From a phage: a DNA stretch of 32,788 bases. Made by a program: the position numbers and the translations under genes. The stretch lies in NCBI GenBank assembly GCA_029942545.1, contig GCA_029942545.1_4114.3; one strand, 5' to 3'. The stretch's first letter is position 1, and the number at the start of each line of letters is the position of its first letter. The notes beneath the pieces are model-generated. The model searched no databases and had not been told where the DNA came from. It saw only the letters and a list, made by a program, of their open reading frames with translations. Below are positions 3,806 to 19,888 of this stretch, one piece after another.

Positions 3806-4468
3806 ATGATGAAAACAAAATTAGGTTTGTTTTATAAAAATTATTTCGTTAAACAGCGTAAATTTATAAAAAAATATTTCTCTGGTGAGAAGTCTAGTCC
3901 TATAATTTTTAAAAGACCAAGTTATAATACTTACTTAGCTGGTGCTAAACAGTCTAAGAAATTTATTACTCTTTTACATAAAAACAAAATTAAAGCTTCT
4001 TATGTTGAAACGAGAAGAAACTCATCAATAACTCCTGGTGATTTTATTGAGTACGGATGTTTCAATATTAAGTATAATGATAATACATACTTTATGGATA
4101 TTGATTGTAATACATCCAATCTTTTTAACATTGTAGTAAATCCATTAAAACAATATAATGTTTATGGTGATTCTATTATCAAATTAATCAAAAACAAAGA
4201 TAGCTTTGATTTTGAAATAAATGTTTTAGATGATAATTTTGACGAAGTACCAGTAAACCCTGAAATCTGTGATATTTTAAACAGTTTAAAAGGTAGTACC
4301 TACAATATATCATCTGATTTAATGTTTCAGTACTCATTAATCCATAAAGATATTGAAAAGTATATTGAATGCTCCAAAATTTTGAATTATCTTTACGATG
4401 AATTTAAAAAGAGTTCTAAAATAACTGCATACACTTTGTACAATATTCCTAAAATGGTGAATCTTTGA
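3806..4468 (+). CDS. hypothetical protein, Lys/Asn-rich, very AT-rich
   Basis: ORF track; AAGGAG SD just upstream; codon composition far more AT-rich than gene 489..1259. Confidence 0.65.
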   Translation: MMKTKLGLFYKNYFVKQRKFIKKYFSGEKSSPIIFKRPSYNTYLAGAKQSKKFITLLHKNKIKASYVETRRNSSITPGDFIEYGCFNIKYNDNTYFMDIDCNTSNLFNIVVNPLKQYNVYGDSIIKLIKNKDSFDFEINVLDDNFDEVPVNPEICDILNSLKGSTYNISSDLMFQYSLIHKDIEKYIECSKILNYLYDEFKKSSKITAYTLYNIPKMVNL

Positions 4469-5601
4469 CAAATACAGTACTGGCAACTCCACCGTCTGTA
4501 ATATATTGTCCAGTACTGTAAATTTGTATACCATCGGTTAAGTAAGTTCTGTATAAAGTTGCTGTAACATATACGTTATTCATATTCATCTCTATTGGTA
4601 GTACACATTTGGTATAGGCCGACACATCTGTTTGTGTACCTATACCCAATTGACCTGCGTTATCGCCTGTGTTATTACCAGTTGCGTAAACACCCAATGA
4701 AGTTATAATATGATTAGAAAAATATGAATAACCTACACTGCTTCTTATTATATCACCTGGTGCTTGTGTTGTTTGTCTTAACGAAATATATGTTTGTGAT
4801 GTAGAACCATTTGCTAACTGACCAAAGTACTGTCCACCACCATGATATGCAAATAATTTATTAGTACTATTATTACTTGCTATAGCAAAAGCGAAGTAAC
4901 TTGAGTTTGTTGTATAATCTTTCACCGTATAGGTATTAGTTATTTGAGAACATAACGTGTACTTTGAATATAACGTCATGTCGGTTGTACCTACGCCTGA
5001 TATTGCACCAGTATAATACAATCTCCCATCGGTTCCAATAAATCCTTGCATAAGAAAATTTGCCAGTATTTTGGATGGTGTTACTCCAGTAGGTACTGTT
5101 CCTTGTACAAATGATGAAAGTGAATCGGTACTTCTACCATTTCCCAGTTGTCCATAACTACCATAACCAGTATTCCATATCGTGTTGTCTGTACATAATA
5201 CGCTTAATGCACCTGCACTAACTGCAATTTGTTTTATTGTTTTTCCTAGGGCTGTTATTCTATCAAACACTATCTTTGCAGAAGCCCACGTAGTAGACTT
5301 ATCAGTTGATAAACCCAATGATGCACCATTCCCAGCGTACCACATCGTATTATCTTTCTTTTTTATTAAAGTTGACTCATACCCGCACCCATATATCTTC
5401 TACGTTTGTATTGCATAAAACCCATTGGGTCTGTGTTATAATATTACCTATACCCATTTGCCCAAACTCTTGAGAGCCTCTACTGTATAGTGTCCCGTCT
5501 GACATAAGGGCAAAAACTGTCGTATCAGATGAAGATATTTTGGTAACAGTAGGGGGTAGGTTCTTTTTTGATGATGTGATAATTCTTCCAAAGGGTAGCA
5601 T
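4449..5601 (-). pseudogene. RCC1-like repeat protein with MLPFGR leader, interrupted by +1 frameshift
   Basis: Track ORFs 5377..5613 (N-terminal part, MLPFGR.. plus first RCC1 blade) and 4449..5345 (C-terminal part, GxNxxGQLG repeats) are colinear with intact paralogs; frames differ by one extra G in a GGG run on the coding strand near 5388-5391. Confidence 0.65.
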
Positions 5602-5667
5602 TGTATCCTCCAAATGTAAATCGTTATTATATTTAGGACAAAAAAATGCCAGTACAAGGCACTGGCA
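5602..5667 (-). promoter_or_regulatory. hairpin terminator plus TATAAT-like element plus GGAGGA RBS (variant cassette)
   Basis: GCCAGT-N7-ACTGGC hairpin with T-run on minus strand, then AATATAAT, then GGAGGA 5 nt before the MLPF ATG. Confidence 0.5.
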
Positions 5668-5673
5668 TAAAAT

Positions 5674-17561: not shown

Positions 17562-17567
17562 ATTATG

Positions 17568-18677
17568 TTATTTTGGTAAATCAATTTTAGTAAAGACTGC
17601 AACATCCTCGATTGCACCTGGAATGGCGTAATACGATCCAGTACTATACACATCTCCATTTTTGGTTAATATCGATGTCAAACCATCACTAAAAAGAACA
17701 TCCCTAATCTCACTAACTTCAACGGGTAATTGTAAATTGGTAGCACTATATATAGCACCAGTTTGAGAATTGTTTAATCCCAAACCACGGTTCGCCCCAA
17801 CACCCTTCTGATATGTACTAGTAATTACCATTTGTGTAGCAGTATTTAAGGCAGGTGAATTCGTCATAAACAACGGAGAACTATTAGGCAAAGTACTTAC
17901 AGGAACGGCACGGAATGTAGTCGTGCCTGAACTAAGAAAGTTTGGAGTTTGACCACATACGAAATATGATGTACCATTATAGTAATTTAATGCATTACCA
18001 CCAATGGCTGCATCGATTACACCAGAACTACGCAATCCCCAAGTGTTAATTTGTGTTTGGTTCCCCGTACCATGCTGCCCACTACTATTCCATCCAGAAC
18101 TATATAGCTTATTATCTAATGTAAGATACATACTATCATTCGCATTGGTCATTACTTTACGAACGTTCGTAGCACATTGAGTTAATGTGTAAATTGATGA
18201 GGAACCAATACCCAAAGAACCACGATATCCATTATCTCCTGCACCATAGAGTACTGAATTAGTGCTAAGTACAAATATTAAACCATTTGTACATACAATA
18301 TTAGCAATTTCACTTACTGGTATAGCATTGGTAAACCAATTAGTTCTTTCAACTAATACAGTACTGTAAGAAGTAGTTGTAGAAGATGAGAACCAGTACG
18401 TTTGACCTGATGTCCATATCGTATTATCATTTTTAATAATAACAAGTGTACGATCACCCACGAAAAAATTAGAAACATCTGCACTTACTAATGTCCACGA
18501 AGACACCGTGTTGGTATTACCATTTCCAGATTCACCACCTTGATTTCTACCTATGTAATATAAATCATGTGAATCAGTCAATAAGAATTGGCCTTGGGTA
18601 GAAGCACCAACTTTAATTATTTTTTTAGGACCAGGGACAATATTTCCATACCTAATCATTCTTCCAAAAGGTAACAT
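17568..18677 (-). CDS. RCC1-like repeat protein with MLPFGRMIRYGNIVP leader
   Basis: ORF track 17568..18698, start moved to MLPF ATG; GGAGGG SD overlaps stop of upstream gene (coupled); motif GWNSSGQHGTGNQT. Confidence 0.8.
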   Translation of the reverse strand: MLPFGRMIRYGNIVPGPKKIIKVGASTQGQFLLTDSHDLYYIGRNQGGESGNGNTNTVSSWTLVSADVSNFFVGDRTLVIIKNDNTIWTSGQTYWFSSSTTTSYSTVLVERTNWFTNAIPVSEIANIVCTNGLIFVLSTNSVLYGAGDNGYRGSLGIGSSSIYTLTQCATNVRKVMTNANDSMYLTLDNKLYSSGWNSSGQHGTGNQTQINTWGLRSSGVIDAAIGGNALNYYNGTSYFVCGQTPNFLSSGTTTFRAVPVSTLPNSSPLFMTNSPALNTATQMVITSTYQKGVGANRGLGLNNSQTGAIYSATNLQLPVEVSEIRDVLFSDGLTSILTKNGDVYSTGSYYAIPGAIEDVAVFTKIDLPK

Positions 18678-18685
18678 ATTCCCTC

Positions 18686-19888
18686 CTATTGTTGCCATAA
18701 CTGCGTTGGCATTAATGTTAGTGTAGTAATACTATAAGTACCATTAGGTAATCTACCACCATTTCCATTCCAGCCACCACATGCATATAATTTATAATCT
18801 TTAGTAATTATTATGGTTCTGCTCCAATCTTTAGATGCCATAAGAACATTGTCATAACCACCACTTATTGCACTAAGATTAAAAATATTCCAAGTTCTAA
18901 CTAATGTATTAGTTCCATTACCTTCTTGACCATATGAGTTAGCACCACTACTTCTAACATATGGTGCGTATTGTGCCATAGGTGCACCAATTGATGCATT
19001 TCCCATATTACTTGGACAAATAAAAGTACTGTACTTACTTACATCAACCGTGACCGATGTGTTCCTAATTGGTGTTAGCTGATTTACCGATGTAGTCGTA
19101 CCATTACCAGCTTGTCCAGTACTGTTAACCCCGCTATAATATACAGACCCACCAGTAGTAAACCACCAAGTAACATCGTATGTAGTACTAATATGTTCTA
19201 CATTACTAATCACGAATTTGTTCAAATATACAACAGAACTACCACCACATCCACTTTCACCAAAGTTATCCTTACCACAAAACCATGCATCTTTATTTGA
19301 TTTGATATAGTGCGTTCCTTGTAATGAACATGCCATATGTGTAACTTCACCCATATTAGTCATAACTGTGAGTGTAGGGATGGAATTTTTATTACCAGAG
19401 CCACATTCACCATTAGTATTTCTTCCACACGCAATTACTCTACCATCGGTTAATAATATTCTAGTACTTTCACCTATATATACACTCTTGATCATATTAG
19501 CCATAACACCTATTTTATTAAATGCAACAGTAACATCAGTCCATGTTGTCAAATAACCATTAACAGGTGTTGCATCTCCATAATCAGAAAATGCAGCCAC
19601 AGACCCAGTGTAGTATATTTTATTATCCAAATCAATCATCAATGAACCTTGAACACCAAGCCAAAAGGCTGCACAGTTCCTTGCAAGTACTGTAAATGAC
19701 GAAACTGCTGCTGAATTCCCAAGACCAAATTGGTAAAAGTTATTACTACCATAACCATATAAAGTATTAGTTGGGTTATGGAGATACATACAGTTTGTAT
19801 AATGTTGTTGTAAAACATCTGAGAACTCTACAGGTTCTGGACCTGGTGCAATATTTGCGTACTTAACCATTCTTCCAAAAGGTAACAT
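18686..19888 (-). CDS. RCC1-like repeat protein with MLPFGRMVKYANIAP leader (first gene of array)
   Basis: ORF track 18686..19906, start moved to MLPF ATG; motifs CGRNTNGECGSGN, SGVNSTGQAGNGTT. Confidence 0.8.
   Translation of the reverse strand: MLPFGRMVKYANIAPGPEPVEFSDVLQQHYTNCMYLHNPTNTLYGYGSNNFYQFGLGNSAAVSSFTVLARNCAAFWLGVQGSLMIDLDNKIYYTGSVAAFSDYGDATPVNGYLTTWTDVTVAFNKIGVMANMIKSVYIGESTRILLTDGRVIACGRNTNGECGSGNKNSIPTLTVMTNMGEVTHMACSLQGTHYIKSNKDAWFCGKDNFGESGCGGSSVVYLNKFVISNVEHISTTYDVTWWFTTGGSVYYSGVNSTGQAGNGTTTSVNQLTPIRNTSVTVDVSKYSTFICPSNMGNASIGAPMAQYAPYVRSSGANSYGQEGNGTNTLVRTWNIFNLSAISGGYDNVLMASKDWSRTIIITKDYKLYACGGWNGNGGRLPNGTYSITTLTLMPTQLWQQ

Follow-up and report, generated by a model that had tools for sequence, protein, structure and literature searches.

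A window of 32,788 nucleotides from a phage (the whole stretch of DNA analysed here; NCBI GenBank assembly GCA_029942545.1, contig GCA_029942545.1_4114.3) carries an array of thirteen genes whose products all begin with MLPF and a few further shared residues, although the proteins behind this leader are not all related. What a leader of about twelve residues could do ahead of unrelated proteins is the question raised by this locus. Comparisons within the window and with related genomes, structure models and published virion proteomes were brought together to answer it, and the reading that we favour, with rather more confidence than doubt, is that this tag would be a docking peptide that loads interchangeable external binding modules onto a common putative acceptor.

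The MLPF tag and its cargoes

A six-frame search of the window for M[LIV]PF returned exactly 13 matches, all of them on the minus strand and all at gene starts (the higher coordinate of each gene in Table 1), which bore out the first-pass annotation, where 13 of 13 genes had been said to start with MLPF(A/G/V)R. By a rough estimate from typical residue frequencies, ~0.2 matches per 32.8 kb would be expected by chance. An origin of the tag by chance or low complexity was ruled out, the motif being found only at these 13 gene starts in the window and only in this clade of phages in the IMG/VR database. Twelve of the 13 tags conform to MLPF[AGV]RM[VIML][KNR]Y[GA]N, and that of the gene starting at 5601 reads MLPFGRIITSSKK. 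The methionine of MLPF is the true start of the window genes, as established by a strong AAGGAGG 5-7 nucleotides upstream and by in-frame stops placed just before it in eight genes. In several public annotations the start of such a gene is set at an upstream ATG, with the ribosome-binding site taken in (e.g., JP4_581, 418 residues), and the shared N-terminus is hidden as a result.

Twelve of the window genes encode RCC1-like propellers (Pfam PF25390/PF00415, phrog_4219). A Pfam scan took in nine of them and gave an RCC1 or RCC1_2 score above the cut-off in all nine; the other three (starts at 6843, 8033 and 5601) were called propellers by their sequence similarity to these. The thirteenth product, that of gene 6 (genes are numbered as in Table 1), is glycine-rich and belongs to phrog_4474; it gave no RCC1 match and no BLAST link to the propellers at E<1e-5, and the earlier claim that its body is unrelated to theirs was upheld.

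The tag is not confined to this phage. By megablast, the window belongs to the Asteriusvirus group of Rak2-like jumbo coliphages, with genomes of ~350 kb (its relatives include PBECO4, 121Q, SHEFM2K, G17 and phAPEC6), at 88-98% identity and a patchy coverage of 30-45%, which indicates that the gene content of this region varies even between close relatives. A tblastn search with the 22-residue leader revealed 513 places in 61 phage records, and all organisms and rows listed were Rak2-like jumbo phages, comprising Asteriusvirus, Mimasvirus (GAP32, CBB, XbC2), Eneladusvirus (BF, pEa_SNUABM, fHe-Yen9), Salmonella phages Munch/7t3, Klebsiella phage fENko-Kae01 and Erwinia phages Hallingskeid/Kaldavass. 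RaK2 and K64-1 were not among the tblastn matches listed for either of the two tag classes described below, which is only weak evidence that they lack the tag. A degenerate-codon pattern searched against the 2.9 million contigs of IMG/VR matched only 121Q, BF, GAP32, CBB and two metagenomic genomes (355 and 371 kb). From 18 loci and the window, 122 tagged genes were extracted, all from Rak2-like jumbo phages; 98 of them are distinct, and they come from nine related genomes of several genera. Every genome presented the same layout, with 4 to 16 tagged paralogues arrayed on a single strand near the genome end or a terminal repeat.

When the first 20 residues were removed, the cargo bodies fell into at least 12 BLAST clusters, among which Pfam recognised RCC1 propellers, Kelch propellers, several divergent Laminin_G_3 (LamG; ConA-like lectin) families and Gly_rich_2; the other clusters gave no Pfam match. 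Judged by these assignments, the tag is joined to at least four unrelated folds, and the LamG and Kelch cargoes would be plausible binders.

Selection on the peptide and the intergenic cassette

The tag codons are preceded by conserved DNA in most of the array. A terminator hairpin, GCCAGTAC-n3-5-GTACTGGC followed by a T-run, lies ahead of 10 of the tagged genes in the window, and nine of these ten, with the exception of the gene starting at 5601, also have a near-identical 40-nucleotide promoter-like element that ends in the ribosome-binding site. The genes starting at 18677 and 6843 keep the tag without any cassette, and that starting at 19888 has only the 3′ part of the promoter-like/Shine-Dalgarno stretch. 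The earlier description of the array was right as to the motif but had to be corrected by adding these two cassette-less genes and a second damaged gene (that starting at 8033, with a product of 269 residues). Terminator-like sites were in excess in the window (22 observed vs 7.3 expected), and the conserved hairpins (e.g., 13851-13871, 16332-16350 and 17543-17561) score as terminators on both strands, the coding here being on the minus strand only. Sigma-70-type promoters showed no enrichment in the window (78 sites vs 77.8 expected), and the upstream element was accordingly rejected as a standard sigma-70 promoter. It contains TAAATA, which resembles the late motif ATAAATA reported for CBB and GAP32 (PMC5259590), and by this resemblance it may be a T4-late-like promoter.

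Among the window copies, the hairpin had a mean pairwise nucleotide identity of 0.84 and the promoter-like element one of 0.75; the identity rose to 0.96 over positions +1..+21 (codons 1-7), and fell to 0.83 over codons 8-12 and to 0.55-0.60 in the gene bodies. Codons 1-4, 6 and 7 were nucleotide-identical in 12 of the 12 type-A copies, codon 5 being variable. This uniformity, together with the conservation of the upstream 75 nucleotides, is what would be expected if the first codons were a nucleic-acid feature, that is, part of a repeated cassette for expression or recombination whose uniformity is maintained through gene conversion or a translation-initiation constraint, with a functionless peptide. 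In fact, since no synonymous change occurs at those six codons, the window alone cannot separate selection on the peptide from gene conversion. The first-pass annotation had argued for such selection from CTA CCC in place of TTA CCT in the gene at 4449..5601; these codons are real, but the gene is frameshifted and a single example is weak by itself.

The comparison across genera revealed a different picture. Pro3 is present in 98 of the 98 distinct tags and is encoded by CCA in 53, CCT in 35, CCG in 8 and CCC in 2; Phe4 is equally invariant (98/98; TTT 88, TTC 10), and Tyr10 (84/98; TAC 50, TAT 34), Gly11 (78/98; all four codons in use) and Asn12 (82/98; AAT 71, AAC 11) are nearly so. Synonymous variation at residues that do not vary across genera shows that purifying selection acts on the peptide, as had been proposed, and the identical nucleotides that the first-pass annotation had named as the sign of mere gene conversion were not what the additional copies contained, all four Pro3 codons being used. 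Moreover, nine tagged genes of CBB have unrelated upstream DNA, two window genes keep the tag without the cassette, and one copy in fENko-Kae01 starts with GTG. A pure DNA cassette was rejected, being largely refuted by the synonymous variation and by the unrelated upstream DNA of CBB, and we hold the nucleic-acid explanation to be very unlikely; on sequence grounds, the tag is conserved at the peptide level.

Two classes of tag were distinguished. Class A follows M-[LI]-P-F-x-[RIQ]-h-h-x-Y-[GA]-N, and the shorter class B, MLPF[PS]IIS[NHS]T, is found in Eneladusvirus, XbC2 and metagenomic genomes; both can co-occur within one genome. The glycine-rich cargo bears a class A tag in the window and a class B tag in Serratia phage BF. 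Between genera the tags differ, examples being MLPFxRMVKYGN, MIPFxRILxYGN, MLPFPQLVQYGN and MLPFPIISNT. The relation of tag to body was examined in 44 propeller-size proteins (300 residues or more) from eight genomes, 42 of which were comparable. The mean tag identity was 0.81 within a genome vs 0.56 between genomes, and the mean body similarity was the same in both cases (42.9 bits within vs 41.8 between genomes); for 29 of the 42 comparable proteins, the best body match lay in another genome. It is thus the genome that the tags track, not the descent of the cargo, and within genomes they evolve in concert. Either co-adaptation to a shared, genome-specific partner or gene conversion would give this pattern.

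Tagged proteins in virions and the role of the tag

Tagged proteins have been recovered in the purified-virion proteomes of four phages (phAPEC6, CBB, JP4 and fENko-Kae01). Those of phAPEC6 are gp003, 005, 006, 007, 009 and 010 (PMC7247149), each of which was confirmed to begin with MLPF; those of CBB are CBB_536, 537, 548, 549, 551, 552 and 553 (PMC5259590), which were matched to tagged genes at CBB loci; those of JP4 are JP4_577, 581 and 582 (PMC12648861 supplement); and in fENko-Kae01 it is the glycine-rich ENKO_525c, the copy with the GTG start, that reads VIPFTKMLTYGN. The phAPEC6 protein gp007 has the length and the first 40 residues of window gene 11, and 3 peptides covering 17.5% of it were found in virions. 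This truncated product of 269 residues, from which ~120 residues are missing, shows that a propeller is still incorporated despite such a loss, which fits an entry driven by the N-terminus.

The position of the tag relative to its cargo was assessed with AlphaFold. The model of gene 8 (mean predicted local distance difference test, pLDDT, 84; predicted template-modelling score, pTM, 0.85) is a seven-bladed propeller with strands from residue 20, in which residues 1-3, 5-7 and 9-13 fall below a pLDDT of 50; by Foldseek it matched UVR8 with a template-modelling score of 0.78 and E 1e-20. The model of gene 6 (pLDDT 92.8, pTM 0.89) has residues 1-7 below 50 and a confident fold from about residue 20, identified as the Glycine-rich fibre-tip domain (Pfam PF21722), a TNF-like sandwich with a glycine-rich loop lattice. 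Its structural matches were the cyanophage Pam3 tail fibre gp24 (score 13.0, 169 residues aligned), the mycobacteriophage Bxb1 tail wing brush gp33 (9.8), the Bxb1 tail spike gp29 (8.8) and the extracellular glycine-rich domain of ALK (about 8). In these models the tag is predicted to be a free extension outside the cargo fold, in two unrelated folds. A role as closure strand of the propeller was rejected, the tag lying outside the fold in both models and being also present on non-propeller cargo. Sequence searches of the PDB gave no solved structure from a phage that contains these proteins; likewise, no solved RCC1 propeller from a phage virion was found. The earlier suggestion of an address tag is thus well supported, the peptide being present in 98 genes of several genera, on at least four folds and outside the fold, its invariant residues showing abundant synonymous variation, and its bearers being found in four virion proteomes.

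Homologues of gene 6 (P0018-P0073) also occur in unrelated phages of ~150 kb, including PVP-SE1 gp19, with another short shared N-terminus, M[LIF]E[LMT][LM] (e.g., MLELLAVSGTKP and MFEMMLATSE), which may represent another lineage-specific tag or else just belong to the domain.

An N-terminal stretch common to otherwise unrelated proteins might also be a secretion or processing signal that exports them from the infected cell. Throughout the tags there were at most 2-3 consecutive hydrophobic residues, a single arginine and no cysteine, with neither a twin-arginine motif nor a lipobox cysteine, and the proteins are recovered in purified virions; this alternative of the first-pass annotation found no support, the tag having no hydrophobic core, and it is scarcely credible.

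The same disorder of the tag in the two models would be compatible with its recognition by a phage chaperone or assembly factor, or with a degradation or quality-control signal, incorporation then depending on the cargo. Such fibre-tip domains do need dedicated chaperones, as Pam3 gp24 needs gp25, and concerted evolution would suit any shared partner. However, one folding helper would have to serve four unrelated folds, the known fibre chaperones bind the fibre at its distal, C-terminal parts rather than at the N-terminus, and no chaperone gene is evident inside the array, for which reasons we give this explanation only slight credence.

If the tag does address proteins to the particle, they could be placed inside or outside it. 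The lead analogy of the first-pass annotation was the capsid-targeting leader of T4, by which the tag would send proteins into the prohead; packaged there alongside the DNA, they would be injected into the host to act as effectors or in anti-defence. Like the MLPF tag, the leader of T4 IPI-III and Alt has ~10 residues, is attached to unrelated cargo and belongs to products found in the virion, and its internal-protein locus is plastic and hypervariable, with a repeated promoter-plus-leader cassette. The low abundance of the tagged proteins in virions and the protein binding of RCC1 and Kelch domains in eukaryotes would agree with it, as would the inner body of phAPEC6, for which the RCC1 proteins were suggested by the authors (PMC7247149). 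Nevertheless, the T4 leader ends at (L/I)xE, where it is cut by the prohead protease, and the MLPF tag is otherwise unlike it. Glutamate occupies position 9 in 13 of the 98 tags, giving an L/I-x-E-like string in those of CBB and XbC2, but in 0 of the 13 window tags, and the residue is elsewhere K, Q, N, T or S; behind the tag there is neither a conserved cleavage site nor a further conserved acidic residue, in agreement with the absence of an LxE site noted earlier. T4 carries its cargo internally and injects it, whereas the homologues of the glycine-rich cargo are fibre tips on external display and the lectin-type LamG cargoes typically bind surfaces. Furthermore, no tag match among those inspected fell under a head or scaffold annotation, all of them being located in these arrays or close to them, or annotated as RCC1-type or structural. 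Without the protease site, with lectin, propeller and fibre-tip cargoes, and with gene 6 a structural homologue of external tail-fibre parts, capsid targeting, although the main rival, is unlikely; a docking peptide for a virion adaptor, which had been listed as an alternative, fits better. The fibre-tip homology of gene 6, together with the lectin and propeller cargoes, favours by analogy the external display of these proteins.

By analogy, the closest tested precedent for the MLPF tag is a conserved 29-residue peptide at the N-terminus of RBP2 (gp38 type) of Klebsiella phage KP32, a secondary receptor-binding protein of Klebsiella podophages, which is necessary for docking to a T4gp10-like branching domain and is transferable to foreign cargo (PMC13352976). 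Both peptides are short, N-terminal and outside the binding or catalytic fold, and that of KP32 is required for virion incorporation, works on unrelated cargo and permits the modular exchange of host-recognition modules. The KP32 peptide differs in its length and in having no evident sequence relation to MLPF, in serving one secondary tailspike per phage, as against 4-16 paralogues, and in its cargo, a trimeric beta-helix depolymerase, as against propellers, lectins and glycine-rich domains; in addition, its acceptor is known, that of the MLPF tag being putative. The Pam3 tail fibre gp24 (PDB 7YPX; cf. glycine-rich adhesin tips such as S16 gp38) docks by an N-terminal three-helix bundle, and gene 6 retains the receptor-binding part but has the MLPF extension of 12-19 residues in place of the docking helices. 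A functional analogy only is offered by the dockerin-cohesin pairs of the cellulosome, where unrelated cargoes with one docking module occupy sockets on a shared scaffold and form mixed assemblies; dockerin is a folded calcium-binding domain of ~70 residues, usually C-terminal and without homology to the MLPF tag, whose scaffold is hypothetical.

According to the docking-peptide reading, the first ~12 residues would be a modular virion-incorporation peptide that extends flexibly from the N-terminus of a ligand-binding domain complete in itself, whether this is a propeller (RCC1 or Kelch), a lectin fold of the ConA/LamG type or a TNF-like/glycine-rich fibre tip. Incorporation would be mediated by the tag itself, which would gain order only on binding an acceptor on the exterior of the particle, probably a single one shared by the tagged proteins, for which the tail, the baseplate and the hair-like fibres are candidates; the putative acceptor is encoded outside the window. 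The pool of 4 to 16 interchangeable heads in each genome, which presumably bind host surface ligands, would compete for the same sockets, resulting in a mixed and fast-evolving adhesin set on the virion. The DNA cassette, with its terminator, T4-late-like promoter element, strong ribosome-binding site and tag codons, could make each head an independent expression unit, and its direct repeats may allow heads to be gained, lost or swapped. A more elaborate version, which we advance tentatively and would not rate as high as an even chance, is a plug-and-socket display in which two possibly orthogonal tag classes load a fast-turnover library of folds onto repeated virion sockets, maybe on the hair or whisker fibres of the capsid and tail sheath, so that the adhesins are combinatorial.

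Several points weigh against docking on the exterior. Gene conversion alone could explain the sameness of tags within a genome, and a single cargo type supplies most of the argument for an external location. Classical fibres are trimeric, unlike propellers and LamG domains, which usually occur as monomers. The gene 6 homologue of PVP-SE1 is a singleton amid replication genes, with no tail context found there. Peptide counts in phAPEC6 were low (1-4 per paralogue), the proteomes record presence and not the inside or outside position or the intactness of the N-terminus, and an internal, DNA-organising role was proposed for the RCC1 proteins by the phAPEC6 authors (PMC7247149).

Hair-like fibres, so far unexplained, have been described on the capsid and tail sheath of phAPEC6, CBB and 121Q. 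The authors of the CBB study pointed out that 4 of the 6 structural proteins present in CBB, which is whiskered, and absent from GAP32 fall in the cluster CBB_534-553; among these, CBB_536, 537, 551 and 552 apparently correspond to tagged genes of one of the CBB loci (L001). Since proteins of 200-400 residues are too small for hairs of 119 nm, it may be speculated that the tagged proteins at most decorate or tip them.

In the literature, these genes have been viewed as putative DNA-condensation proteins or merely as variable between close phages. The tag is nowhere described in the literature found on the motif or on RCC1 in Asteriusvirus, in the papers on phAPEC6, CBB, JP4 and fEgEco12, or in those on Sharanji, Eneladusvirus, phiKp24 and jumbo-phage comparative genomics. 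In dozens of genomes the genes bear the label 'regulator of chromosome condensation' or 'DNA condensation protein', a name carried over from the eukaryotic fold; the propeller fold as such says nothing on chromosome condensation, and the evidence points to tagged virion modules. Should the tag prove to be a docking peptide, it would offer a testable route to what the hair-like fibres of phAPEC6, CBB and 121Q carry and to how these phages vary host recognition without RaK2-type tailspikes. The docking-peptide principle would be widened from single secondary tailspikes to an exchangeable library with four or more folds and as many as 16 paralogues in a genome, and a minimal tag would be available for phage display and host-range engineering, by which arbitrary proteins could be mounted on jumbo-phage particles.

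The genes of the array and their surroundings

Table 1. Tagged genes of the window with the hairpins and an example of the cassette that precede them
Feature	N-terminus or sequence	Body	Length (residues)	Position	Strand	Remarks
Tagged gene 1	MLPFGRMVKYAN	RCC1-like propeller	400	18686..19888	-	upstream cassette partly conserved
Tagged gene 2	MLPFGRMIRYGN	RCC1-like propeller	369	17568..18677	-	overlaps end of gene 1; no upstream cassette
Tagged gene 3	MLPFARMVKYGN	RCC1-like propeller	379	16357..17496	-	
Tagged gene 4	MLPFARMMNYGN	RCC1-like propeller	382	15137..16285	-	
Tagged gene 5	MLPFARMMNYGN	RCC1-like propeller	395	13878..15065	-	
Tagged gene 6	MLPFGRMIKYGN	TNF-like/glycine-rich domain	245	13068..13805	-	unrelated to propellers
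Tagged gene 7	MLPFVRMIKYGN	RCC1-like propeller	382	11848..12996	-	
Tagged gene 8	MLPFARMVKYGN	RCC1-like propeller	387	10613..11776	-	AlphaFold-modelled
Tagged gene 9	MLPFGRMVKYGN	RCC1-like propeller	383	9390..10541	-	phAPEC6 orthologue gp005, found in virions
Tagged gene 10	MLPFARMVKYGN	RCC1-like propeller	391	8142..9317	-	phAPEC6 orthologue gp006, found in virions
Tagged gene 11	MLPFARMVKYGN	truncated propeller	269	7224..8033	-	out-of-frame remnants to ~6854
Tagged gene 12	MLPFGRMLKYGN	RCC1-like propeller	389	5674..6843	-	no upstream cassette; phAPEC6 orthologue gp010, found in virions
Tagged gene 13	MLPFGRIITSSKK (class-B-like)	RCC1-like propeller		4449..5601	-	frameshift-split
Example cassette	hairpin GCCAGTAC-nnn-GTACTGGC with T-run, then TTGTATTAAATATAGTATAATGAATAAAGGAGGGAAAT, then ATG			17497..17561	-	
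Hairpins, first five				17543-17561, 16332-16350, 15112-15130, 13851-13871, 13042-13060	-	
Hairpins, last five				11823-11841, 10587-10605, 9364-9383, 8077-8101, 5646-5668	-	

The body of gene 3 is nearer to genes of Munch and Hallingskeid than to its paralogues in the window. Gene 13 is interrupted by a one-base frameshift near 5377-5390, and its counterparts in 121Q (genes 235 and 234), PBECO4 and phAPEC6 are split in the same way; its retention in these phages suggests an old retained pseudogene, or possibly a programmed shift. The tag of this gene (MLPFGRIITSS) is nearer to class B of Eneladusvirus than to class A of the neighbouring genes.

As to the database records, the matches counted by the first megablast included 17 under the name of Vibrio phages. 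An NCBI record of 351,831 bp, labelled Escherichia coli O157, encodes a protein identical to one of the array, and the phage genome was apparently deposited there inside a bacterial assembly.

On the plus strand, divergent from the array, a second tandem family of 16 tiny genes (59-81 residues) extends over 19991-23795, interrupted once by an open reading frame of 223 residues at 21611-22282; many of their products start with M(H/Y/N)KE(Y/F)Y and end with L(I/L)(Y/F)R(Y/H), and they are joined by mutual BLAST links of E ~1e-3 to 1e-18. At the other side of the array, seven consecutive plus-strand genes at 1325-3764 encode hydrophobic, membrane-like proteins of 104-141 residues, and in CBB and GAP32 a series of membrane proteins is annotated on the corresponding flank. 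The ~2 kb at ~23800-25740 hold no open reading frame of 60 residues or more and no tRNA; there the GC content rises and the GC skew changes sign. In related phages, the array adjoins the boundary of the direct terminal repeat.

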